A stretch of DNA of 50,440 nt. Origin: Minisyncoccota bacterium (lineage in GTDB: Bacteria > Patescibacteriota > Minisyncoccia > Phycocordibacterales > Phycocordibacteraceae). Location of the stretch: the NCBI GenBank assembly GCA_041660025.1, contig JBAZXD010000001.1:106059-156498 (forward strand), in the 5' to 3' direction. This document shows positions 5,399 to 42,066 of the stretch, in pieces. The translations under genes and the position numbers were made by a program. Numbering within the stretch: the stretch's first letter is position 1; the number at the start of each line of letters is the position of its first letter. The notes below the pieces were generated by a model that worked only from the letters and a program-made list of their open reading frames with translations, was not told where the DNA came from and searched no databases.

Positions 5399-5968
5399 AT
5401 GCAGGCAAACGTCGAATACTGGTTTCGCCTCCTCTATGAATGCATCTACGGCGCCTGCTACGGCTCGGTCGACACCGCCGGATTCGCCGCGTGGCTCGCG
5501 CATCTCTGGCTCTGGATCATCGCCGTCGGCTACATCCTCGCGATCCTCGGGCTCTTTGTCATCGTGTACTGCACAATGCGCCTCTTCGAACTGCGCAAGC
5601 GCGAGGAGGAGTTCTATAAGACCCTCATCATACCGCCCGAAGCGCCGGGCGGTATGCACCCGCGCTGGGAACACATCCAGATGCTCGTGGAGGGGAATAG
5701 CCCGAGCGAGTGGCGCGAGGCGAGCATCGAGGCGGACATTATGCTCGACGACGTGCTCGCGAAGCGGGGATACGTCGGCGTCGGCGTTGGTGAAAAGTTG
5801 AAGAGCGTCGACGAGGCGGAACTCGCGACGCTTCAGGACGCGTGGGAGGCGCACAAGGTGCGCAATCAGATAGCGCATCAAGGTTCCACGTTCGATCTCT
5901 CCGAGACGCTCGCGCGCCGCACCATCGCGCACTACGACGCCGTCTTCCGCGAATTGAAAGTGATATAG
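5399..5968 (+). CDS. Membrane-anchored hypothetical protein with C-terminal RxxxxH (HEPN-like) motif
   Basis: One hydrophobic segment, then WEAHKVRNQIAH. ATG 5399 chosen over GTG 5393 because TATACT lies at 5385-5390. Confidence 0.7.
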   Translation: MQANVEYWFRLLYECIYGACYGSVDTAGFAAWLAHLWLWIIAVGYILAILGLFVIVYCTMRLFELRKREEEFYKTLIIPPEAPGGMHPRWEHIQMLVEGNSPSEWREASIEADIMLDDVLAKRGYVGVGVGEKLKSVDEAELATLQDAWEAHKVRNQIAHQGSTFDLSETLARRTIAHYDAVFRELKVI

Positions 5969-6037
5969 GAACAAATTGTTTTCTCGCTTTTGGAATGCGT
6001 TTGCCTCCTGTATTTTGTTGGAGTATAGTGTCGTAAT

Positions 6038-6108
6038 AGCGGGGTAGAGGAGAGGTACCTCGGGAGGCTCATAACCTCCAGACGCCGGTTCGATTCCGGC
6101 CCCCGCAA
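6038..6108 (+). tRNA. tRNA-Met(CAT), probable initiator
   Basis: Cloverleaf: GCGGGG/CCCCGC acceptor with unpaired A1-A72, anticodon stem GGAGG/CCTCC with loop CTCATAA, T arm GCCGG-TTCGATT-CCGGC. Promoter TTGCCT-17-TATAGT at 6001-6029. Confidence 0.93.
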
Positions 6109-6115
6109 CAAGCAA

Positions 6116-6145
6116 GCAAAAGTCCGGCGTACGCCGGACTTTTGC
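6116..6145. terminator. Perfect 30-bp palindrome, probable terminator after the tRNA
   Basis: GCAAAAGTCCGGCGT|ACGCCGGACTTTTGC. Confidence 0.8.
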
Positions 6146-6190
6146 GTTGTGTAGCAGTTTCTATAAAACCCTTTTAAATGGCGGTTATTG

Positions 6191-6217
6191 AACGGCTCAG
6201 ACGGGGTCTGAGCCGTT
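6191..6217. repeat. REP-like palindrome family 1, copy 1
   Basis: AACGGCTCAGAC-GGG-GTCTGAGCCGTT; recurs at 34182-34216 and 42405-42449. Confidence 0.9.
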
Positions 6218-6233
6218 TGGTACACTACCCGGT

Positions 6234-6620
6234 ATGAACCGCGAGGAGTTTGAAAAATTAGTAGAGGAGGGGTTTTTGCTTATTCCGGAGCAGTTCCGCG
6301 CGAAGATACGGAACGTCGCGCTTCTGGTCGAGGACGAGCCGTCGCGGGAGGTGCGGGAGCGGGAAGGGCTCTCAGGCGATGAGACACTGCTCGGCTTGTA
6401 TCAGGGCATCCCGAATACGGCGCGCGGCGACTCCTATGGTGTTGGCCCCACGCTCCCCGATACCATCACGCTCTACCAGTTGCCGATAGAGGAGGCGGCT
6501 CGCGAAGACGGGGAGGATGTTCGGAAGGTTATCGCCGAGACCATTTGGCACGAATATGCCCACTACTTCGGTATGGACGAAGAGGAGGTGCGATTCCGCG
6601 AGGATTTGCGCGAGTCGTGA
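6234..6620 (+). CDS. Minimal zincin-like metallopeptidase family protein
   Basis: HEYAH zinc motif, LLGLYQG, PDTITLY. Confidence 0.85.
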   Translation: MNREEFEKLVEEGFLLIPEQFRAKIRNVALLVEDEPSREVREREGLSGDETLLGLYQGIPNTARGDSYGVGPTLPDTITLYQLPIEEAAREDGEDVRKVIAETIWHEYAHYFGMDEEEVRFREDLRES

Positions 6621-6621
6621 T

Positions 6622-7623
6622 TTACGCGACGACGTTCGCGGGCGTTCCGGCGGCGAACTTCTGGATGTTCTCGATCGTCGCGTTGAGGATGCGTTCGACG
6701 GCCTCCTGCGTATTGAAAGCGAGGTGCGGCGTGACGATGACGCGCGGGTGCTCGATGAGGTAGTGATTCTCGAGGGTGACCTTCAGCGCCTCTGCATTCG
6801 GGTGCGGGGCGGTGAGGAGCTTCATCTCGTCGTTCAGCTCGCCCTCTTCTTCGAGTACGTCGAGCGCGGCGCCGGCGAGACTGCCGCTTGTGAGCGCATC
6901 GACGAGTGCCTGCGTCTCGACGACCGCGCCGCGGGCGGTGTTGATGAGGTACGCGCCTTTCTTGAGACTGCCGATATTCTCACGATTAATAAGATGATGC
7001 GTCTGCGGGTTGTACGGGACGTGGAGCGTGACGATGTCGGAGGCCGCAAGCAACTCCGGCAGGGAGACGTAGGAGAAGTCGAGCGTGTGAGAGAGCTCGG
7101 CATTCGGGAAGGCGTCGAACCCGACGACCTGCATACCGAATCCTTTGCTCATACGAATAACGTGCGCACCGATGTGCCCGGTGCCGACGACGCCGATGGT
7201 CTTACCGGCGAGGTCGAAGCCGCGGAGCCCGGCGGGCGAGAACGCGCCGCCCCTCACGCGTTCATCGGCGTCGATGATGCGGCGCGAGAGCGCCAAGAGG
7301 AGCGCGAAGGCGAACTCGGCGACCGTGTTCTCGCCGTAGAACGGGACGTTCGCGACCGCGATGCCGCGTGCCTTCGCAGCGGCAAGGTCGATATGGTCGA
7401 AGCCGGTCGAGCGGGTGGCGATGAGCTTCAATGCCGGGAATCGCTGCATCTCCGCCTCGCCGATAGGGGATTCTATGAAAGCGCAGAGCACCTCTGCTTG
7501 CGGGTCGGCGAAGTCGGGGGATGCGGCAACGGTCTCCGAGTGGAACGTGATGTCGTGTCCGGTGAGCCTCGTGCGCACAAACTCCTCTTCCCACGCCTCG
7601 CCCGAAAAGTAATGGATATGCAT
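6622..7623 (-). CDS. D-isomer-specific 2-hydroxyacid dehydrogenase (LdhA-like)
   Basis: RSTGFDHID, GTGHIG Rossmann motif, INTARG, TPHLAF; second Met of the ORF taken as start. Confidence 0.93.
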   Translation of the reverse strand: MHIHYFSGEAWEEEFVRTRLTGHDITFHSETVAASPDFADPQAEVLCAFIESPIGEAEMQRFPALKLIATRSTGFDHIDLAAAKARGIAVANVPFYGENTVAEFAFALLLALSRRIIDADERVRGGAFSPAGLRGFDLAGKTIGVVGTGHIGAHVIRMSKGFGMQVVGFDAFPNAELSHTLDFSYVSLPELLAASDIVTLHVPYNPQTHHLINRENIGSLKKGAYLINTARGAVVETQALVDALTSGSLAGAALDVLEEEGELNDEMKLLTAPHPNAEALKVTLENHYLIEHPRVIVTPHLAFNTQEAVERILNATIENIQKFAAGTPANVVA

Positions 7624-7674
7624 AAAAGGTATAGTACAATATATCACTATAGAACCGCATAGTAAGTAAAAATT

Positions 7675-9096
7675 TTGGAAATGGAAAAGTACGCATTCGA
7701 CGGCAAGATCCTTATCGTAGGATTCGGGAGTATCGGGCAGGGCGTGTTACCGCTCCTGCTCCGACATTTCAGCACGCCGCCCGAGAATATCACCATCGTT
7801 ACCGCCGACACGCGGGGCGAGGAGGTCGCCCGTGAATACGGCGTCCGCTTCGTCGTCGATCCTCTCGTCCCCGAGAATTACGAAGGAATCGTGGGACGGC
7901 ACATCGGAAGGGGTGATTTCCTCCTGAACGTCTCGGTGGACGTCTCCTCGGCCACGCTTATCGAATACTGCCAGAAGAACGGTATTCTCTACCTCGATAC
8001 CGTCGTCGAGCCGTGGGTCGGCTATTACACCGACCCGTCGCTCTCGGTCTCACAGCGTTCGAATTATGCGCTCCGCGAAGAGGCGCTCGCGCTCCGTTCG
8101 CTCTCCCTAGAGGGACCGCGCCCGACCGCGGTAATCGCACACGGCGCGAACCCGGGTCTTGTTTCTCACTTCGTCAAACAGGCGCTCCTCAATATCGCGG
8201 AAGACACCGGAGTAAAAACGGACATGCCGAAGACGCGCGAGGAATGGGCACGACTCGCGATGGAACTCGGCGTGAAGGTCATCCACATCGCCGAACGGGA
8301 TACGCAGGAGTCATCAGTACCGAAGAAAATAGGCGAGTTCGTCAATACCTGGTCCATTGACGGGTTTTATTCAGAAGGCAGTCAGCCGTCGGAGATGGGC
8401 TGGGGCACGCACGAAAAGACCATTCCCGCGGATGGTCGAGAACACGATTTCGGCTCGCGCTGTGCCATCTATCTGGAACGTCCGAGCTTTATGACGAAAG
8501 CGCGGAGCTGGACCCCTACCTCAAAAGCTCAGCAGGGGTGGGTCATCACGCACCACGAATCCATCTCTATCGCCGATTACCTGACGGTACTGGAGGGCGG
8601 CAAAGCCGTGTATCGGCCAACGGTACATTATGCGTATCACCCGTGCGACGGCGCCGTACTCTCGCTCGACGAGCTCGCGGCTAATAACGGCATCCTACAG
8701 GAAGAACAGCGACTCATCGGCGACGATATCCTCCCCGGCGGGGTCGACGAGCTCGGCGTTCTCCTTATGGGACACGCGAAGGGCGCGTACTGGTACGGCT
8801 CGCGCCTCTCCATCGACGACGCACGTCGGCTCGCGCCGCACAACAACGCGACCGGACTCCAGGTAACATCGAGCATCATCGGCGCGATGGTCTGGGCGAT
8901 CGAGAACCCGACTTCGGGCATCGTGGACGCCGACGAGATGGATCACGAGCTCCTGATGAAGATCGCGCGGCCGTATCTCGGCGAAGTGTTCGGCGAGTAC
9001 ACCGACTGGACGCCGATAGAAGGTCGCGGGAAGTTGTTCCCCGAGCACTTTGACGCTGAAGACCCGTGGCAGTTCGAAAATTTCAGAGTGTCCTGA
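7675..9096 (+). CDS. hss: Homospermidine synthase
   Basis: GFGSIG Rossmann motif, HGANPGLVSHFVKQAL, FVNTWSIDG, YWYGSRLSI, NATGLQV. Start may be 7681. Confidence 0.92.
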   Translation: MEMEKYAFDGKILIVGFGSIGQGVLPLLLRHFSTPPENITIVTADTRGEEVAREYGVRFVVDPLVPENYEGIVGRHIGRGDFLLNVSVDVSSATLIEYCQKNGILYLDTVVEPWVGYYTDPSLSVSQRSNYALREEALALRSLSLEGPRPTAVIAHGANPGLVSHFVKQALLNIAEDTGVKTDMPKTREEWARLAMELGVKVIHIAERDTQESSVPKKIGEFVNTWSIDGFYSEGSQPSEMGWGTHEKTIPADGREHDFGSRCAIYLERPSFMTKARSWTPTSKAQQGWVITHHESISIADYLTVLEGGKAVYRPTVHYAYHPCDGAVLSLDELAANNGILQEEQRLIGDDILPGGVDELGVLLMGHAKGAYWYGSRLSIDDARRLAPHNNATGLQVTSSIIGAMVWAIENPTSGIVDADEMDHELLMKIARPYLGEVFGEYTDWTPIEGRGKLFPEHFDAEDPWQFENFRVS

Positions 9097-35724: not shown

Positions 35725-35758
35725 GAATGGCTCGGACGCCACGTTGATTGTGTACAAA

Positions 35759-35781
35759 TATTTTGCAAAAGACTGCAATAG
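35759..35781 (+). promoter_or_regulatory. 23-bp operator-like direct repeat, also present at 36056-36078
   Basis: TATTTTGCAAAAGACTGCAATAG, identical in both places; contains TTGCA-N6-TGCAA. Confidence 0.7.
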
Positions 35782-35799: not shown

Positions 35800-36078
35800 A
35801 TGACGGAAAAGGTTTCGTACCGCCGGATGGAACGGATCGTGAAAGGGTTCGCGAATCATCGCCGCTTGGAGATACTCGACCTGCTCAAGCGGGAACCGGA
35901 GCTCTCGGTGGACGATATTTCTGAACGGCTCGGTATCGGATACGAGAACGCCTCCGACCATGTGCGTAAATTGGCGATCGCCGGTCTCGTGTTGAAGCGC
36001 AACGACGGCAACGCGGTGCGCCACAAGCTCACTCCCCGCGCTGAATCTGTTCTAGTATTTTGCAAAAGACTGCAATAG
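35800..36078 (+). CDS. ArsR/SmtB-like winged-helix transcriptional regulator
   Basis: KGFANHRRLEILDLL, SVDDI, ASDHVRKLAIAGLV. Confidence 0.88.
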   Translation: MTEKVSYRRMERIVKGFANHRRLEILDLLKREPELSVDDISERLGIGYENASDHVRKLAIAGLVLKRNDGNAVRHKLTPRAESVLVFCKRLQ

Positions 36079-36156: not shown

Positions 36157-36173
36157 ATTGATATACTTTGTTC

Positions 36174-36569
36174 ATGGACTCCTACACTTCATATCAGGCG
36201 CTCATCAAGCCGAGCTGGTCGCCGCCCGCGTGGGTCTTCGGTCCCGTGTGGACAGTGCTGTACGCCATCATCGCCGTTACGTTCGGCACAGTGTTCTATA
36301 AGGCGTTCACCAGGGAAGTCCCCTGGGCGGTTGCGCTCCCGTTTGCACTCAACCTCGTCTTTAATTTTTCTTTCACGTATTTCCAGTTCGGCCTGCAGAA
36401 TAATGCGCTTGCCTCAATCGACATCCTGCTCGTCCTCGGCACCCTCGTCTGGGCGCTCATTGTCGTCTGGCCCCACGCCCGCTGGGTCGCCCTCGCCAAC
36501 ATCCCCTACCTCCTCTGGGTCTCCTTCGCGACCGTCCTGCAACTTACGGTTACGTATTTGAATCGATAG
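36174..36569 (+). CDS. tspO: TspO/MBR tryptophan-rich sensory protein
   Basis: LIKPSWSPPAWVFGPVWTVLY, PYLLWVSFA. Confidence 0.95.
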   Translation: MDSYTSYQALIKPSWSPPAWVFGPVWTVLYAIIAVTFGTVFYKAFTREVPWAVALPFALNLVFNFSFTYFQFGLQNNALASIDILLVLGTLVWALIVVWPHARWVALANIPYLLWVSFATVLQLTVTYLNR

Positions 36570-36596
36570 GAATGGGTGCTTTAATTGGTGGAAGTC

Positions 36597-37757
36597 ATGA
36601 CAACTCTAAATCTACAGCCAAATGGAGAAGTAATTCGGTGGGCAAGAGAAACAAGTCGCAAATCTATCGCCGAGATTGCGGCGGATTTGGATGCAACACC
36701 AAGCGAAATTCGTTCGTGGGAAGCCAATTCTGCTCCGGTTCGTCTCACTCAACTTAAGAAACTGGGATCTTTGTACCAGAGACCCATCGCTTTTTTCTTC
36801 GCGCCTGTTCCTCCAACAGAGGAGTTAATTACTCCAGCTTTTAGAACATTTGATTCAGTCAAATTAGATTCCCTTTCAGAAAAGACCCTTATTGCACTTC
36901 GGAAGTCAAAAGAAAATAGAGACCTGTATAAGTTTCTTCTAGAGGAACTTGAAGAGAAATACAGCTTCAATTTTCCCATCACCTCTATTAACGATGATGC
37001 CGATCAATTCGCAGATAAAGTCAGAAAGTATCTCGGTATTTCAGACAACATTCATGAGAGATTCAAAGATAAATATGTTGCCTTAAAATTTTGGATAGCT
37101 CTTGTTGAACAACACGGGCTATTAGTCTTCCAATATTCTCTTCCAGAAAGGGGGTTTTGTTTAAGTGGCAATGAGGACCTTCCTCCCACCATCGTCATGA
37201 ATTCGGGAGAATACCCTGCCGGCAGAATATTCACCATATTCCACGAGCTTTGCCATCTTTTGCTGAAAGAAAAATCAGAATCTATATCTCACACAAGATT
37301 GGAAGAGTACTGCAATCACTTTGCTGGGGCGTTTCTTGTATCCAAAAGAAAGTTGATGGAAAGCAAAAACAGGGAGAAATTCCTGCTTGAAATGTCCGAT
37401 TTCTGGTTAGGAAGGTTGGCCGGTGAGTTCAAAGTTAGTCATGAAGTCGTTTTACGAAGGCTATTGATTCTTAAGGATATCACCCAATCATTTTACAATC
37501 AGAAAATAGCAGAACTGAAGAAAATTCAACAGAGAAGAAAGGAAGAATCTGAAACAAGCGAGAATTCGGGGTTCATAGCTCCTGCTCGCAAAGCCCTAAT
37601 GAACGTGGGCGTCACTATGGCCTCGAAGCTCTTTCAAGCACGAGATGCCGGTGTTATTAGTACAGCAACGCTCGTTAGAAGTTTTGACACCACCTCGCAT
37701 TCTTTGAAAAACGTTGGTACCGAATTAGCGTCCGCAAAGAACCTAAAGCTCGAATGA
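36597..37757 (+). CDS. XRE-HTH plus ImmA/IrrE zinc metallopeptidase fusion
   Basis: N-terminal HTH (IRWARE...IAEIA...IRSWEA), FTIFHELCH, EEYCNHFAGAFL; AT-rich. Confidence 0.92.
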   Translation: MTTLNLQPNGEVIRWARETSRKSIAEIAADLDATPSEIRSWEANSAPVRLTQLKKLGSLYQRPIAFFFAPVPPTEELITPAFRTFDSVKLDSLSEKTLIALRKSKENRDLYKFLLEELEEKYSFNFPITSINDDADQFADKVRKYLGISDNIHERFKDKYVALKFWIALVEQHGLLVFQYSLPERGFCLSGNEDLPPTIVMNSGEYPAGRIFTIFHELCHLLLKEKSESISHTRLEEYCNHFAGAFLVSKRKLMESKNREKFLLEMSDFWLGRLAGEFKVSHEVVLRRLLILKDITQSFYNQKIAELKKIQQRRKEESETSENSGFIAPARKALMNVGVTMASKLFQARDAGVISTATLVRSFDTTSHSLKNVGTELASAKNLKLE

Positions 37758-38293
37758 TGGCCAACATGACTTCGACGCGAATATACATTATTGATACAAG
37801 TGCTTTTGTAGTGCTTGATACGTTATTCCCCTTCGCACAATGGCAACCAATATGGGATTTTCTTGGGGTAAAGGTGACAGAGGGTGTTCTGAAAACCATC
37901 GATGAGGTAGAGGAAGAGTTAAAAAGGAAATTTTATGATCTACCGATTACGGATTGGGTAAAAATGCGAAGGTCAGAGATAAACTACCCGTATATTCCAG
38001 AGCATTTTCAATATCTGAGACAGGAGGTTTACCCACGATGTAATGGGCTCATAAATCCAAACAGTACGTCGACTTTATACGCTGACCCGATGCTGTTAGC
38101 GATAGCTGGGCATGATAACCACACGTTGGTCACCGACGAAGTGCTTAAAGAAATTCATGCAAACACAAATCCTCTGAAAATTAAGCTTCCTAACCACTGC
38201 AGCACTCTTGGTGTCAATTGTATCTGGGGAAGGTATGCATGGACCCAGTTACTAAATGAGCTTGGGTTACAAATTACAGGATTTAAAACTTAA
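37754..38293 (+). CDS. DUF4411-like PIN-domain protein
   Basis: YIIDTS, EVEEEL, ADPMLLAIA, LVTDE, KIKLPNHC; overlaps the IrrE stop. Confidence 0.82.
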   Translation: MMANMTSTRIYIIDTSAFVVLDTLFPFAQWQPIWDFLGVKVTEGVLKTIDEVEEELKRKFYDLPITDWVKMRRSEINYPYIPEHFQYLRQEVYPRCNGLINPNSTSTLYADPMLLAIAGHDNHTLVTDEVLKEIHANTNPLKIKLPNHCSTLGVNCIWGRYAWTQLLNELGLQITGFKT

Positions 38294-38352
38294 ATACCAC
38301 TGGACATAGCACGGATTTAAATAAGGAGTAGACTTAAGCGGTATAGATAGGT

Positions 38353-38700
38353 ATGAAGAAAATAGACGAATTTACAAAGAGAATAGTTGCCTTCAGGAAC
38401 GCCCGGGACTGGAAGCAATTTCATAATCCCAAGGATCTCTCACTCTCTCTCGTTCTCGAGGCCACCGAGGTCATGGAGCATTTCCAGTGGAAGAATAAAG
38501 AAGAAATAGAGAAGTACGTTATTGAAGCAAAAGGAGAAATAGGGGAGGAGCTCGCAGATGTCTTGTATTGGGTTCTTTTGATGAGCCACGACCTAAAAAT
38601 AGATGTACTCAATGCGCTCGATAAAAAGATGAAGAAAAACGAAAAGAAGTATCCCATCAAAAAAGCAAAAGGGAAACATACGAAGTACAACAAACTTTAA
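38353..38700 (+). CDS. MazG-like nucleotide pyrophosphohydrolase
   Basis: FRNARDWKQFHNPKDL, EATEVMEHFQW, EELADV, KYP. Confidence 0.93.
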   Translation: MKKIDEFTKRIVAFRNARDWKQFHNPKDLSLSLVLEATEVMEHFQWKNKEEIEKYVIEAKGEIGEELADVLYWVLLMSHDLKIDVLNALDKKMKKNEKKYPIKKAKGKHTKYNKL

Positions 38701-38703
38701 TTT

Positions 38704-41013
38704 ATGATTGTTTATCAATCTACGAAACTAGGGTTTTTGAAAGATGCATCAAATGGAATCGAAGACATAGTTAGAGAACAGGTAAAAGAAAGGCTCAATA
38801 TCGATATTAAAGTCGGGAGCAGTGAATATAACTCCTGGAAAAACTCCTTGGGAGATGCGATGTACAAGGTAATGCAAACGGATAAGATCCCAGATGATTC
38901 TGGCGTTGCAATAGAATACTCAATACCTCGCACGAAAAACCGTATTGATTTTGTCATTACAGGTGAGGATGATAATGGTAAAGAGAAAGTTATTATCATT
39001 GAGCTCAAACAATGGACCGATATTCAAAAGACGGATAAAGATGCAATCGTCACCACCCGCTTTAAAAGCGGCTTAAGCGAAGAACTCCATCCCTCGTATC
39101 AGGCATGGTCGTACTCCACTCTTCTTTATGGGTTCAACGCTACAGTATACGAGGAGAAAATTGGTCTAGAACCCTGTGCATATTTGCATAATCATGTGGA
39201 TGAAGACGTCATATTGAGTCCTTTTTATGCTGATTATCTTCAAAAAGCACCTGCTTTTTGCAAGGGGGACAAAGAAAAACTTCAGGACTTCATTGCGAGA
39301 TTTGTTAAACACGGAGAAAAGAAAAACACGCTTTATCGGATCGATCATGGCGAGATTCGTCCATCAAAGAATCTCGCGGATAGTCTGGCTTCAATGCTCA
39401 AAGGTAATGACGAGTTTGTCATGATAGATGAACAAAAGATTGTGTATGAGACAGCGCTTTCTCTCACGAAGAAATCTTCAAAAACCAATAAAAACGTATT
39501 GATTGTCGAAGGCGGTCCGGGTACTGGCAAGTCGGTAGTAGCGATAAATCTTCTGGTAGCAATTACTAAGCTGGGGCTCAATACGCAATATGTAACCAAA
39601 AATGCAGCGCCACGTGGCGTGTTTGAGGCAAAGCTTGTGGGGTCATTTAAGAAGTCGCAAATATCGAATTTCTTCACTGGATCGGGGTCATTTGTTGGAG
39701 AGGAAGAAAATATCTTCGATGCTCTTATTGTCGACGAAGCACATCGGCTTAATGAAAAATCTGGAATGTTCAAAAATCTTGGTGAGAACCAAATCAAGGA
39801 GATTATTGATTCTGCAAAGTGCTCGATATTTTTCATAGATGAAGATCAAAAAGTGACATGGCACGATATCGGGAGGAAAGAGGAAATTGAGAAGTGGGCA
39901 AATAAAATTGGTGCAAAGGTTCATGGTCTCAAACTTGAATCGCAGTTTCGCTGCAATGGTTCTGACGGATATCTATCATGGCTTGATAATGCCCTTGGTA
40001 TAGAAGAAACAGCAAATACAACCCTGGAGGGGATAAATTATGATTTTAAGATTGTTGAATCGCCGAATGAATTGCGGGACATAATTTTCGAGAAAAATAA
40101 AATTGCCAATAAAGCACGATTAGTTGCTGGGTATTGTTGGAATTGGGTAAGCAAAAAAGATAAGAATTTAAATGACATCGTAATTCCAGAATATGACTTT
40201 GGGATGAAGTGGAATCTTGCAAGCGATGGAAACGTTTGGATAATATCACCGAAGTCTGTAAACGAAGTAGGTTGCATTCATACGTGCCAGGGTCTTGAAG
40301 TTGATTATGTTGGGGTTATTGTTGGAAATGATTTTGTTGTCCGAAACGGCGAAATAGTGATTAATCCTGATAAACGCGCGAAGACCGATGCATCACTAAA
40401 AGGATACAAAAAGGAATTTAAAGAAAACCCAAAGGCTGCAGCCGAGAAAGCTGATGCAATCATCAAAAATACCTACAGGACCCTCATGACCCGAGGAATG
40501 AAAGGATGTTATGTCTATTTTGTAGACAAGGAAACGGAAAATTATTTTAAGAATAGAATCGGAAAAGAGATAGACTATCAAAAATATTTCGCACCGGTAT
40601 TGTCGCCGATTACCCGGGACATGATTCGTGTTCCGCTCGTCGGATCGGCCCCATGTGGTAACCCATTAGTAGGAGAACAGAATATCGAAGAGTATATTTT
40701 AGTCGAGAAAGCAAAAATCAAGCCCGGGTTTAAATATTTCATCCTCAGGGCCGAAGGAGACTCAATGAATCTCGCAGGTATAAATGATGGGAACCTTGTC
40801 TTATGCCGCCTGCAAGAAAAAGCTGACACAGGTGATCGAGTCGTGGCTCTTTTAGGAGGTGAAAACGTCACTATCAAAGAGTATGGCCCACGAGAAGACG
40901 GTGTCCGTCTGTTACTCCCTAAGAGTACAAATAAAGAACACCTGCCGATTACTCCCGACGAGGGTGACAGTGTGCAAGGTGTTGTTCAGGAAGTTATTAA
41001 ACCGACAGAATAA
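38704..41013 (+). CDS. DUF2075-type nuclease/SF1-like helicase fused to C-terminal LexA/UmuD S24 peptidase domain
   Basis: RIDF...IELKQW (PD-D/ExK-like), GGPGTGKS, VDEAHRL, HTCQGLE, TYRTLMTRG; then VPLVGSAPCG, EGDSM, TIK. Confidence 0.9.
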   Translation: MIVYQSTKLGFLKDASNGIEDIVREQVKERLNIDIKVGSSEYNSWKNSLGDAMYKVMQTDKIPDDSGVAIEYSIPRTKNRIDFVITGEDDNGKEKVIIIELKQWTDIQKTDKDAIVTTRFKSGLSEELHPSYQAWSYSTLLYGFNATVYEEKIGLEPCAYLHNHVDEDVILSPFYADYLQKAPAFCKGDKEKLQDFIARFVKHGEKKNTLYRIDHGEIRPSKNLADSLASMLKGNDEFVMIDEQKIVYETALSLTKKSSKTNKNVLIVEGGPGTGKSVVAINLLVAITKLGLNTQYVTKNAAPRGVFEAKLVGSFKKSQISNFFTGSGSFVGEEENIFDALIVDEAHRLNEKSGMFKNLGENQIKEIIDSAKCSIFFIDEDQKVTWHDIGRKEEIEKWANKIGAKVHGLKLESQFRCNGSDGYLSWLDNALGIEETANTTLEGINYDFKIVESPNELRDIIFEKNKIANKARLVAGYCWNWVSKKDKNLNDIVIPEYDFGMKWNLASDGNVWIISPKSVNEVGCIHTCQGLEVDYVGVIVGNDFVVRNGEIVINPDKRAKTDASLKGYKKEFKENPKAAAEKADAIIKNTYRTLMTRGMKGCYVYFVDKETENYFKNRIGKEIDYQKYFAPVLSPITRDMIRVPLVGSAPCGNPLVGEQNIEEYILVEKAKIKPGFKYFILRAEGDSMNLAGINDGNLVLCRLQEKADTGDRVVALLGGENVTIKEYGPREDGVRLLLPKSTNKEHLPITPDEGDSVQGVVQEVIKPTE

Positions 41014-41051: not shown

Positions 41052-41189
41052 CTAGTTTGTTGGTTTCGGTTGGTTCGTAATTTTGGCTGGTGCGCTTTTA
41101 GGTAAGTTGGTCAACTTAACGGGAAGGCTTTTCGGCTGGTTCGTAATTTTGGCAGGCGGATTCTTTTTTTGATTGGTGAGTTTTGTCAT
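41052..41189 (-). CDS. Unannotated 45-aa Lys/Pro-rich peptide made of four 11-aa repeats
   Basis: MTKLTNQKKNP-PAKITNQPKSL-PVKLTNLPKSA-PAKITNQPKPTN; the nucleotide differences between the PAKITNQPK segments of repeats 2 and 4 are synonymous. Confidence 0.65.
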   Translation of the reverse strand: MTKLTNQKKNPPAKITNQPKSLPVKLTNLPKSAPAKITNQPKPTN

Positions 41190-41343
41190 AGATTATGCGT
41201 TGGTTAATATTGTTCGGTTTGACTAGGCCGATACCATACATTTTACTCCTGTCTATGAAATACGCCCTGTGGAGATCATGTGGAGAGCGAAATCCTAAAT
41301 CCAGTAGCTTTTGGGAGGAAATTCGATGAGGTACAATACCCTC

Positions 41344-42066
41344 ATGAGGATTATCTTTTTTGATACGGAGACGACGGGGAATGGCGACAAGGACAGACTC
41401 TGCCAGCTCGCGGTGAAGGAGCGGTTCGTGGACGAACCGCTGGTGAACGCGACGTACAAGCCGCCCGTGCCGATATCCATCGAGTCGATGGCGATTCATC
41501 ACATCACCGAGCGGATGGTCGCCGGCCGGCCGGCGTTTCAGGACGCGCCGGAGTATGGGAGTGTGAAGGACCTCTTCGAAAACGAGGAGACAGTCGCGGT
41601 CGCGCATAATGCGGCCTTTGACGTGGCGATGTTCGCACGCGAGGGCATTGTGCCGCGCCGGACCATCTGTACCTACAAGCTCGCCTACGCGCTCGACCCG
41701 GACGACGCCGTGCCGAACTATCGGCTCCAATATCTGCGCTACTTGCTCGATCTCGATATCGAAGCCGAGGCGCACGACGCCTGGGGCGATGTGCTCGTGC
41801 TCGAAGCGCTCTTCGAACGGCTCCTCGAGAAGATGAAGGAGCGGCACGGGACCGAGGAGGCCGCGCTCGAGGCGATGCTCGCCATCTCAGCGCGCCCGAT
41901 GCTCTTTACCACGCTCCGCTTCGGCAAATATAACGGCAAGAAGATAGAAGAGGTCGTCCGCCTCGATAAGAGCTATCTGGAATGGCTCCTGAAGGAGAAA
42001 GAGAAGGATCCGACGGGAGAGGCAGACTGGATATATACACTCAAGCATTATCTAGGCGCGGTTTGA
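41344..42066 (+). CDS. DEDDh 3'-5' exonuclease (ExoX-like)
   Basis: FDTETTG, AHNAAFD, AHDAWGD, C-terminal FGKYNG motif. Confidence 0.92.
   Translation: MRIIFFDTETTGNGDKDRLCQLAVKERFVDEPLVNATYKPPVPISIESMAIHHITERMVAGRPAFQDAPEYGSVKDLFENEETVAVAHNAAFDVAMFAREGIVPRRTICTYKLAYALDPDDAVPNYRLQYLRYLLDLDIEAEAHDAWGDVLVLEALFERLLEKMKERHGTEEAALEAMLAISARPMLFTTLRFGKYNGKKIEEVVRLDKSYLEWLLKEKEKDPTGEADWIYTLKHYLGAV

Follow-up and report, generated by a model that had tools for sequence, protein, structure and literature searches.

What does a self-cleaving domain of the LexA type do at the end of a nuclease-helicase? The question is raised by an open reading frame in a 50,440-nucleotide stretch of DNA of a Minisyncoccota bacterium (contig JBAZXD010000001.1), which was analysed as a whole and is called here the window. 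An earlier note, made from the sequence alone, had described this frame as a nuclease-helicase carrying an autoproteolysis module, and its writer knew of no characterised example; likewise, we found no publication on the architecture in the searchable full-text literature. Our answer, to which we give somewhat less than an even chance, is that the product is a MazG-associated, Nhi-like defence enzyme that is switched, most likely on, by RecA*-stimulated self-cleavage. We infer this whole reading, including the cleavage, the RecA* trigger, the activating direction and the role of the frame in defence.

Architecture of the reading frame and descent of its tail

The features of the locus are collected in Table 1. 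The earlier note had claimed a DUF2075-type helicase followed in the same frame by an S24 module, and the matches to PF09848 (SLFN-g3_helicase/DUF2075) and PF00717 confirm it. The absence of an HTH that it had also claimed holds as well, with no HTH family matching at E <= 0.01 in the 769 residues in Pfam; in particular, the winged-helix DNA-binding domain of LexA (PF01726) gave no match over that length. The GGPGTGKS and DEAH motifs of the helicase are invariant across the aligned orthologues, and its fold is matched in Foldseek by RecD2, SLFN11, SLFN14, Ighmbp2 and Upf1.

Table 1. Features of the locus, in window coordinates.
Feature	Position	Strand	Basis or remark
HTH + M78 peptidase gene, RmrA-like	36585-37757	+	Pfam and PADLOC
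DUF4411 gene	37754-38293	+	Pfam and PADLOC
Conserved upstream leader/promoter-like stretch 'AAGGAGTAGACT'	38321..38352	+	blastn, shared motif
MazG-like nucleotide pyrophosphohydrolase gene, 115 aa	38353..38700	+	PF12643, E 1.1e-16
Whole ORF: nuclease-like domain, SF1 helicase, linker, S24 domain	38704..41013	+	769 aa plus stop
N-terminal domain, putative PD-(D/E)xK/NERD-like nuclease (aa 1-260)	38704..39483	+	invariant motifs, sub-threshold NERD match
D82	38947-38949	+	putative nuclease residue
E100-L-K102	39001-39009	+	E100-x-K102 motif, putative nuclease
DUF2075 / Schlafen-group-3 SF1 helicase (aa 263-608)	39490..40527	+	PF09848, E 1.4e-105
Walker A GGPGTGKS	39511-39534	+	in helicase domain
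DEAH motif	39733-39744	+	in helicase domain
Flexible linker (about aa 619-642)	40558..40629	+	low pLDDT, high dN
LexA-type S24 autoproteolytic/dimerisation domain (aa 643-769)	40630..41010	+	PF00717, LexA register
C651-G652, predicted scissile pair	40654-40659 (C651 40654-40656; G652 40657-40659)	+	
S687, predicted catalytic Ser in 'EGDSM'	40762-40764	+	
K725, predicted catalytic Lys in 'TIK'	40876-40878	+	

The N-terminal domain is a putative PD-(D/E)xK/NERD-like nuclease. D82, E100 and K102 are invariant in an alignment of 61 sequences, the secondary structure predicted around them is alpha-beta-beta-beta-alpha-beta, and NERD (PF08378) is matched in the same register in three orthologues, but below threshold (E 0.02-0.11). 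The assignment stands at the level of these motifs and of the sub-threshold NERD match because the fold searches were uninformative: a profile of six orthologues matched no sequence in the PDB with the cut-off relaxed to E <= 10, and AlphaFold modelled the isolated N-terminus poorly (pLDDT 50), the Foldseek matches of that model being meaningless. No Schlafen core/AlbA_2 domain (PF04326) was matched by Pfam before the helicase. Between helicase and tail lies a linker of about 22 residues that is predicted to be disordered, with pLDDT <50 for aa 621-637. The predicted model of the full-length protein has a pTM of 0.38, so its domain packing is uninformative and occlusion of the enzyme by the tail is not inferred from it.

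The tail itself is far better defined. PF00717 covers aa 644-760 (E 4.1e-18; 65.6 bits vs a gathering cut-off of 23.3), the region is modelled with a pLDDT of 80-88, and Foldseek superposes this predicted model on LexA C-terminal domains (TM 0.77-0.84, rmsd 2.3-3.5 A). When the sequence is aligned by HMMER with LexA of E. coli (7b5g_A), C651/G652 correspond to A84/G85, S687 to S119 and K725 to K156. The positions that had been claimed for the Cys-Gly pair, the Ser and the Lys proved exact on a coordinate check. At the level of sequence, we regard it as confirmed that the tail is a complete S24 domain with an intact predicted cleavage site and Ser/Lys dyad.

The Cys-Gly pair had been taken for that of UmuD. 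The pair is present, yet it is not specific to UmuD, being shared by true LexA proteins (for instance P0173 and P0183), and in P0173 the site motif 'VPLVGSAPCGNPL' is identical to that of the window's tail. Among free-standing proteins, the tail is most closely related to true LexA proteins (PF01726 + PF00717; 50-58% identity), and its best sequence matches in the PDB are LexA chains. The LexA model TIGR00498 scores 68.8 bits over the C-terminal part only, below its equivalog cut-off of 110.95, and the UmuD family NF007621 scores 42.3 bits vs a threshold of 110. By sequence, then, the tail derives from true LexA; a UmuD-like tail was considered and rejected, LexA being clearly the closer relative. 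Pfam found no Y-family polymerase or UmuC gene among the neighbours at 35.8-42.1 kb. Elsewhere, a 74%-identical stand-alone S24 protein is encoded near a Y-family polymerase gene in a contig of the CPR (Candidate Phyla Radiation, Patescibacteria).

Whether such a tail might respond to RecA can be judged from the contact surface. F203 of RecA enters a LexA pocket formed by V79, V82, F111, L113, V146 and V153 (Cory et al.). In our alignment, the equivalents are V646, A649, F679, L681, V714 and V722, five of them identical and one conservative; the residue equivalent to F111 is kept in 67/67 and that equivalent to V146 in 64/67 of the type-1 sequences, i.e., of the fused relatives that carry this kind of tail. 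LexA K135, a RecA-contact residue, is replaced by L703. The kept pocket is suggestive of a RecA response, and proves no RecA dependence. Moreover, in published experiments RecA*-dependent cleavage was blocked when MBP preceded the C-terminal domain of LexA on a linker of 5 residues, and was partly restored with one of 24. The long linker seen here, with its predicted disorder, fits this need of a bulky N-terminal cargo for a long linker.

Conservation and genomic setting

The search for DUF2075+S24 architectures that the earlier note had recommended was run, and it revealed a widespread fusion. Nuclease-helicases with an S24 tail fall into dozens of 90%-identity clusters, far more than chance would yield; among 80 species loci, 43, from many phyla, have the tail, and the Cys-Gly pair, the Ser and the Lys are intact in all 67 of the close, type-1 relatives. 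Against locus L001, the S24 part has a dN of 0.05; by region, the linker reaches 0.26 vs 0.04-0.07 in the domains, and its identity to L005 and L006 is only 18-27%. Synonymous sites are saturated, so dN by domain is given in place of dN/dS. These values speak strongly for purifying selection on the tail.

A second type of tail is found on other members of the family. It derives from XRE-HTH/S24 repressors (45-55% identity) and is unrelated to the first (BLASTP E 1.5 between them), and both types are fused to orthologous cores; the fusion has therefore arisen twice, by convergent capture. Most type-2 tails keep the dyad (Ser in 16 of 18, Lys in 17 of 18), and about 34 of 43 have hAA/G sites, the slash marking the predicted cut. 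It is quite possible, though we would not call it probable, that the S24 modules which this widespread family of MazG-associated enzymes took over, at least twice, from repressors of the SOS response and of phages serve as portable, covalent RecA*/ssDNA sensors, through which RecA filaments would switch an immune effector directly and post-translationally, with transcription playing no part. Orthologues lacking the S24 domain, up to 90% identical, are interleaved with the fused ones in the tree of the core, so that the predicted cleavage product resembles enzymes that occur naturally on their own. No S24 remnant was found downstream of one of them (P0104, at L009/L010), where the short form ends cleanly.

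The MazG-like gene is the constant companion of the enzyme. The earlier note had overlooked it, as it had the taxonomic breadth of the fusion, the orthologues lacking S24 and the descent of the tail from LexA. Only 3 nt separate the stop codon of the MazG-like gene from the start codon of the helicase, the gene directly adjoins in the six contexts inspected (6/6) and in at least 60 of the 80 species loci, and the EXXE...EXXD motifs are visible in its protein sequence. According to blastn, nucleotide homology to the related locus L002 has its 5' limit at 38321, the first position of the leader, and in L001 and L009 the leader motif likewise precedes the MazG-like gene. A generic promoter and terminator scan of 36.0-41.5 kb gave nothing above shuffles, so a promoter function of the leader is putative.

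The module sits in a low-GC islet beside a RosmerTA-like pair. The RmrA-like and DUF4411 genes of this pair (36585..38293) are a separate, neighbouring two-gene system, and, being absent from the syntenic locus L002, they are an insertion. Downstream in the window there is an ExoX-type exonuclease gene, an adjacency that is not conserved in other contexts. Across loci, AbiE, RhuM/Fic, HNH, PLD/ResIII, methylase, RadC and second DUF2075 genes abound in the immediate vicinity of the module. The contexts are variable, with different genomic sites and a patchy distribution, and the module is also found on plasmids. It is rare in viral contigs, and we rejected a phage-borne module: IMG/VR holds only three distant relatives, all S24-less, and the GenBank phage records one. 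The nearest tRNA in a scan for an integration site is 31.9 kb away, an Rfam scan near the islet for an RNA element had no match, and neither recA nor a separate lexA is present in the window or in those comparison loci that this search covered. The context is, in short, mobile and defence-island-like, and an anti-phage role of the two-gene module (MazG-like protein plus nuclease/SF1-helicase) is the most likely one.

A candidate RecA-responsive switch and its rivals

The nuclease-helicase occupies the position of the DNA-binding domain of LexA, having captured the cleavage-site region of a true LexA together with the catalytic/dimerisation domain. In the mechanism that we propose, the S24 tail would dimerise and keep the enzyme restrained. 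RecA filaments, formed on ssDNA that arises as phages replicate or as DNA is heavily damaged, would then dock on the tail through the F203 pocket and stabilise its cleavable conformation, upon which the C651-G652 bond would be cut by S687/K725. The freed enzyme of 651 residues, essentially colinear with the S24-less orthologues, might finally attack DNA intermediates that contain ssDNA. Sensor, switch and effector would thus all reside in one polypeptide.

The most serious rival, although rather unlikely in our opinion, reverses the direction of the switch. The uncleaved enzyme would be the active one, and RecA*-stimulated cleavage on host damage would strip off the dimerisation domain, expose a C-terminal degron and so disable or degrade the enzyme, sparing repair intermediates. 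Cleavage does inactivate both LexA and CI, and Nhi-type enzymes act on ssDNA-containing intermediates, which are produced by host damage too. Furthermore, S24-less orthologues are common, so the tail is not needed for the enzyme to be tolerated; this weakens the picture of a latent toxic enzyme. The frequent hAA/G sites add to this, since a cut there would leave a type-2 product ending in '-AA', which points to destruction after cleavage: such a C-terminus resembles the latent degron of the LexA N-terminal fragment that is recognised by ClpX. The product predicted for the window, however, ends in '-APC', which to our knowledge is not a known degron, and it is colinear with S24-less orthologues that are presumably active, so its inactivation would require an additional degradation step. 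Besides, phage infection tends to generate RecA*, and the defence would be disabled just when it is needed.

It is improbable that the tail serves mainly for dimerising the helicase and recruiting it to RecA-coated ssDNA, with self-cleavage as mere turnover or release. In LexA, the C-terminal domain does provide the dimer interface as well as the surface that binds RecA*, the F203 pocket is kept here, and Nhi is partly dimeric. Binding alone, however, requires neither the scissile pair nor the dyad, which are kept in all 67 type-1 and in most type-2 sequences; degenerate tails, such as those of L028 and L029, are rare.

A little less probable still is a mobile module for the response to DNA damage, in which the MazG-like protein would clean the nucleotide pool and RecA* would activate a repair or recombination enzyme, as with UmuD. 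MazG-family enzymes are house-cleaning NTPases and the tail is an SOS module, and one may add the ExoX-type gene downstream and the stand-alone S24 protein near a polymerase gene mentioned above. Against this reading stand the patchy and mobile distribution, over different sites, plasmids and, in the window, a low-GC islet; neighbours that are mostly Abi, toxin-antitoxin, restriction and other defence-type genes; an architecture that is that of the anti-phage Nhi; and the ExoX adjacency, which is not conserved. Finally, the chance that the tail is an assembly artefact, a decaying remnant or the one-assembly read-through that the earlier note had considered is negligible: the tails of a few relatives are degenerate (L028, L029) and one relative, L075, is frameshifted, but the in-frame fusion recurs in many independent assemblies, sources and phyla, under strong purifying selection on the tail.

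If RecA* does gate the enzyme, the SOS sensor would govern an effector protein itself, without the detour through a regulon, which would be notable for the small genomes of Patescibacteria. It would represent a new class of immunity with sensor, switch and effector in a single polypeptide, and a third outcome of S24 cleavage beside the inactivation of repressors and the activation of UmuD. Moreover, it would explain what licenses one class of defence nuclease-helicases, with a bearing on how attack on self DNA is avoided. Cultured strains are among the carriers (Phocaeicola barnesiae DSM 18169, Halomonas halocynthiae DSM 14573, Thioalkalivibrio sp. ALE10 and Geomesophilobacter sediminis Red875), so the RecA-gating hypothesis is directly testable; natural controls are at hand in the pairs of orthologues with and without S24 and in the two convergent types of tail. 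As an engineering part, too, a tail that cuts itself and frees its cargo on an ssDNA/RecA signal could be of use. The conserved MazG-like partner is a second unexplained component of the module.

Relation to known systems

The nearest comparison is Nhi (Bari et al., bioRxiv 10.1101/776245; for 'Nhi-like' systems, also Millman et al., 10.1101/2022.05.11.491447). Nhi, too, joins an N-terminal nuclease of the PD-(D/E)xK type to a DUF2075 (PF09848) SF1 helicase in a single polypeptide and occurs in defence islands; moreover, the protein of Staphylococcus epidermidis (SERP2475) is autoinhibited at full length, and its N-terminal fragment on its own has nuclease activity (Bari et al.). In contrast to our frame, Nhi is a single gene, with neither MazG-like partner nor S24 tail, it has not been reported from Patescibacteria, and its detectable similarity to the frame is confined to part of the helicase. 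In PADLOC, the Nhi model matches aa 255-418 only (model 198-331 of 470, E 1.2e-12), i.e., not full-length, and the AbiO model likewise matches only part of the helicase. The eukaryotic group III Schlafens SLFN11 and SLFN14 share the helicase family PF09848 and are among the best structural matches, although the frame lacks their N-terminal Schlafen core (AlbA_2) and they lack an S24 domain; SLFN11 is linked to ssDNA and replication stress. In Hachiman HamAB and AbpAB, a helicase restrains a nuclease or is coupled to it, and signals of DNA integrity set the nuclease free; they belong to other protein families and are not known to have a RecA-responsive proteolytic module or a MazG partner.

With LexA, the tail shares the cleavage-site region, the Ser/Lys dyad, the fold and most of the RecA-F203 pocket, but a nuclease-helicase of about 620 aa takes the place of the winged helix, and the frame encodes no transcription factor. 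UmuD, another S24 protein that lacks a DNA-binding domain, gains an enzyme function when RecA* stimulates its self-cleavage at Cys-Gly, and its conversion to UmuD' is the only classical case of activation through S24 cleavage. UmuD, however, is a Pol V subunit that loses an N-terminal peptide of 24 residues, whereas the 'peptide' removed here would be an enzyme of 651 aa. CapH/CapP of CBASS and RmrA of RosmerTA also set a protease switch tied to damage or infection beside a defence effector. There, regulation is transcriptional, with an M78 metallopeptidase that targets an HTH repressor or antitoxin encoded as a protein apart; the S24 domain of our frame is a serine self-cleaving module covalently fused to its effector, so the control would be post-translational and in cis.

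An S24 module on a putative nuclease-helicase

The 769-residue protein of the window carries a DUF2075 helicase followed by an S24 peptidase domain, and no helix-turn-helix family of Pfam matches it. In a HMMER alignment with E. coli LexA (PDB 7b5g_A), the scissile A84/G85 pairs with C651/G652, the nucleophile S119 with S687 and the general base K156 with K725, the register being identical in a MAFFT alignment of the protein with LexA and UmuD. The AlphaFold model has a mean pLDDT of 72, and its C-terminal 125 residues are confident (pLDDT 80–88) and superpose on LexA C-terminal domains in Foldseek with TM 0.77–0.84. Pfam, the alignments and Foldseek thus confirm the intact S24 module without a helix-turn-helix that the earlier note had read from the sequence, and its positions for Cys-Gly, Ser and Lys proved exact on recheck.

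Features of the module and its surroundings (window positions or residues of the helicase-S24 protein)
Feature	Position	Strand	Remarks
TspO	36168-36569		
HTH + M78 (IrrE/ImmA-type) peptidase gene + DUF4411 gene	36585-38293		PADLOC RmrA E 5e-20; 4-nt overlap
MazG-like NTP pyrophosphohydrolase gene (PF12643)	38353-38700		115 aa; stop 3 nt before helicase start codon
Helicase-S24 ORF	38704-41013	+	769 codons
Schlafen-group-3/DUF2075 helicase (PF09848)	aa 263-608		Pfam E 1.4e-105
Peptidase_S24 (PF00717)	aa 644-760		Pfam E 4.1e-18, 65.6 bits vs gathering score 23.3
Scissile C651-G652	40654-40659		
S687	40762		
K725	40876		
ExoX	41311-42066		

A search over 5.8 billion proteins shows that the fusion is not an artefact: PF09848 + PF00717 recurs in dozens of 90%-identity clusters, 66–92% identical over the full length, which stem from independent assemblies (NCBI, JGI, ENA, Logan) and are mostly named as Patescibacteria (Kaiserbacteria, Parcubacteria, Paceibacterota, Minisyncoccota). 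Cys-Gly, Ser and Lys are all kept in 67 of 67 type-1 proteins, as we call the fused relatives with a LexA-derived tail like that of the window. Compared with the 89%-identical orthologue of the related locus L001, at saturated synonymous sites, dN is 0.05 for the S24 part, 0.04–0.07 for the nuclease-like part and the helicase, and 0.26 for the linker; the tail therefore appears to be a domain with a function, kept by selection, whose tether evolves fast. Very likely, it is a self-cleaving S24 module that works and is maintained by selection.

A methionine three residues ahead of VPLVG (M640, window 40621-40623) is kept in 56 of the 67 type-1 tails and absent from LexA. Two stand-alone S24 ORFs (P0147 and P0149, 74–75% identical) begin exactly at its equivalent ('MVSVPLVGSAPCG'). 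Translation might start internally at this Met and yield the S24 domain by itself, or the residue could have just a structural part; an obvious Shine-Dalgarno sequence is not seen ahead of it.

The helicase retains the invariant motifs GGPGTGKS and DEAH and the TRG arginine finger, and its modelled fold resembles those of the SF1 helicases RecD2, SLFN11, Ighmbp2 and Upf1. The N-terminus is a putative PD-(D/E)xK nuclease: D82 and E100-x-K102 are invariant on a predicted alpha-beta-beta-beta-alpha-beta core, and a weak match to NERD, of the PD-(D/E)xK clan, has a consistent register in three orthologues, whereas the N-terminal 260 residues match no family above threshold.

Origins and occurrence of the tails

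With the window's tail alone as query, the best matches are fragments of the same fusion, followed by true LexA repressors (LexA_DNA_bind PF01726 + PF00717) at 50–58% identity, one of which (P0173) carries a motif identical to the window's, "VPLVGSAPCGNPL". LexA outranks UmuD in PDB and NCBIfam searches too. Therefore, the Cys-Gly pair, which the earlier note had tied to UmuD, is LexA usage in these lineages and no UmuD hallmark. Type-2 relatives, those fused to an unrelated S24 tail, are about 800 residues long, with helicase cores 68–80% identical to the window's. Their tails, marked by AACG or AAG, GxSME/GESMN, YTVK and a long insertion, have no significant similarity to the window's tail (BLASTP E 1.5); among free-standing proteins, they are closest to XRE-HTH + S24 repressors of 255–280 residues (45–55% identity). 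Two repressor lineages have thus each given their self-cleaving half to one enzyme family, and in both types the enzyme stands where the DNA-binding head of the repressor was.

A stand-alone S24 protein of 126 residues on a Patescibacteria contig (L011 5001-5381; also L012) is 74% identical to the window's tail, and the similarity reaches back a few codons beyond the predicted start. Downstream come HNH_5 and DUF4238 genes and, at a distance of about 3 kb, one for a Y-family polymerase (IMS). The protein could be UmuD-like or what remains of a fusion.

In a library of 50%-identity representatives, 771 members of the family reach E <= 1e-30, and an S24 tail is present in about 20 of the best 150. 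Scanning one genome for each GTDB species gave 80 loci at 44–68% identity, distributed over Proteobacteria, Bacteroidota, Verrucomicrobiota, Nitrospirota, Desulfobacterota, Acidobacteriota, Patescibacteria and others, with a tail in 43 (almost all type 2) and none in 37. Cultured carriers of the fusion include Phocaeicola barnesiae DSM 18169, Halomonas halocynthiae DSM 14573, Halomonas sp. G11, Thioalkalivibrio sp. ALE10, Geomesophilobacter sediminis Red875 and Haliea sp. E1-2-M8. In a neighbour-joining tree built on the helicase core, the three kinds of protein (type 1, type 2 and without S24) intermingle, the S24-less P0053 (621 aa) being sister to the window's clade with 90% identity. The S24-less P0104 gene (L009/L010), the one checked, has a clean end with no S24 remnant downstream. 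The interleaved tree and this clean end therefore point to an optional module, gained, lost or swapped many times. To judge from these sequences, the core enzyme works without the S24 tail.

Rare tails among the fused relatives are degenerate or broken. One from Desulfocapsa (L028 1022-3331) is without site, Ser and Lys, one from Acidobacteria (L029 2255-4573) has A-A-D at the site, as in the non-cleavable LexA G85D mutant, and in Vreelandella malpeensis (L075 5983-8391) helicase and S24 tail occupy separate ORFs, probably by frameshift. Instead of S24, the same core bears a second P-loop, PIF1/RecD-like helicase region in P0391 (1068 aa) and other C-terminal tails of about 140–160 residues in P0344 and P0418. 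An S24-less DUF2075 paralogue (634 aa, L008 8502-10406) lies directly 3' of a type-2 fused gene on a Patescibacteria contig.

A two-gene module and its surroundings

The earlier note overlooked a MazG-like partner, whose gene is immediately upstream in every context inspected (type 1, type 2 and S24-less). Of the 80 species loci, at least 60 have it next to the helicase gene (55 on the upstream side, 5 downstream), and it also accompanies an S24-less relative on a Marivirga plasmid. Therefore, the unit is a two-gene module. The downstream arrangement is seen in Halomonas and relatives (L060, L068, L082, L088, L081). A 22-kb GenBank record, 'Microcystis phage Mwe-JY31' (L093, PP438423.1), with all genes annotated hypothetical, holds a 60% identical S24-less orthologue (5657-7863); the 109-aa gene directly upstream is presumably the MazG-like partner.

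The module sits in a 41%-GC islet (window 36570-41013) within a 58%-GC genome. The syntenic groundwater contig L002, ordered as TspO, module, about 4 kb of other small genes and an ExoX remnant, shares nucleotide homology with the window over TspO (36159-36563), the module (38321-41009) and the ExoX C-terminus (41842-42053), and the TspO-ExoX interval holds different cargo in related contigs (L001-L004). The three-stretch homology therefore indicates a variable hotspot. The HTH-M78 and DUF4411 genes, by their similarity a RosmerTA-like pair, are absent from L002 and have therefore been inserted, between TspO and the MazG-like gene with its helicase. In the other contexts inspected, the module occupies unrelated sites, with SLFN_AlbA_2/HATPase_c_4, ParE/Phd, RelB, RadC, Bro-N, NYN, Fic/RhuM or a second DUF2075 gene as neighbours. 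Across the 80 species loci, 137 directly flanking genes were scanned, and the families seen most often are HNH_2, RhuM, ResIII, PLDc_2, AbiEi/AbiEii, Fic, SWI2/SNF2, DUF3427, cytosine methylase, RadC and NERD, and the PADLOC candidate families PDC-S05 and PDC-S23 recur. The module is rare in viral contigs. Islet, hotspot, unrelated sites, defence-type neighbours and viral rarity form the signature of a putative mobile defence gene, and we consider a defence system the likely identity of the module. HNH_2, the top neighbour family (8 of 137), could in some lineages belong to the module as a third member.

Two 27-nt direct repeats (window 41064-41090 and 41130-41156, TTTCGGYTGGTTCGTAATTTTGGCWGG), 93% identical and 66 nt apart, are intergenic and lie where the GC content changes, just past the 3' end of the S24 gene. 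A 52-nt direct repeat (35730-35781 and 36027-36078, 79% identical) brackets a small ArsR/MarR-type HTH gene (35800-36078); TTTTGCAAAAGACTGCAATAG, whose core is palindromic, occurs in both copies, which could be operators.

Proposed trigger and direction of the switch, and known systems

According to Cory et al. (bioRxiv 10.1101/2023.10.30.564768), F203 of RecA enters a LexA pocket of V79, V82, F111, L113, V146 and V153, which LexA has solely when it is cleavable in conformation. At these positions, the HMMER alignment gives V646, A649, F679, L681, V714 and V722 for the window's protein. With MBP in place of the LexA N-terminal domain on the native 5-residue linker, cleavage dependent on RecA* (the RecA filament on ssDNA) is blocked and alkaline cleavage is not, and a 24-residue linker partly rescues the former (bioRxiv 10.1101/2023.10.30.564768). 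In type 1, a cargo of about 620 residues hangs on a linker of about 22 residues (pLDDT < 50), and the type-2 linker, read by eye from the sequences, has about 45. By analogy, both lengths would match the needs of a RecA*-responsive design. There is no recA gene within the window; most Patescibacteria encode RecA. RecA*/ssDNA is probably the physiological trigger.

The weakest step of the proposed mechanism is the direction of the switch. We prefer, tentatively, the reading in which RecA*-stimulated cleavage would free the enzyme from the S24 dimerisation domain and so activate or license it. Residues 1-651, the product of the cut, are colinear with natural enzymes that lack S24 and should therefore be active, and the autoinhibition of Nhi-type enzymes and the precedent of UmuD, activated by cleavage, argue by analogy in the same direction. 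An SOS-triggered off-switch, in which cleavage would inactivate the enzyme, is a less likely but serious rival. In its favour, S24-less forms are evidently tolerated, so the tail would not be needed for containing toxicity, and a cut at hAA/G, the sequence of most type-2 sites, would leave an "-AA" C-terminus resembling the latent ClpX degron of cleaved LexA; the window's product, however, would end in "-APC". A tail mainly for targeting and dimerisation is quite improbable, and a non-immune damage-response role slightly more so. 

In the full-text literature we found Nhi, Nhi-like and many helicase-nuclease defences, and nothing that describes DUF2075 joined to S24, LexA domains on a Schlafen-type helicase or a MazG-like + DUF2075 pair, which agrees with the earlier note in that no characterised example was found. 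Nhi (SERP2475 of Staphylococcus epidermidis; Bari et al., bioRxiv 10.1101/776245; for Nhi-like systems, Millman et al., bioRxiv 10.1101/2022.05.11.491447) is a staphylococcal nuclease-helicase immunity protein. Its full-length form is autoinhibited, and the N-terminal 230 residues on their own have nuclease activity; Nhi curbs the build-up of phage DNA, and a phage ssDNA-binding protein protects against it. Its architecture, an N-terminal nuclease and an SF1 helicase, is that of the window's putative nuclease-helicase, whereas the PADLOC Nhi and AbiO models show only partial sequence similarity to the window's protein, which is therefore Nhi-like in design and not a member of Nhi proper. The helicase-type enzyme and the S24 part are each known, and their combination is new: the implied regulatory logic would set the S24 switch covalently on the effector, replacing the DNA-binding domain.
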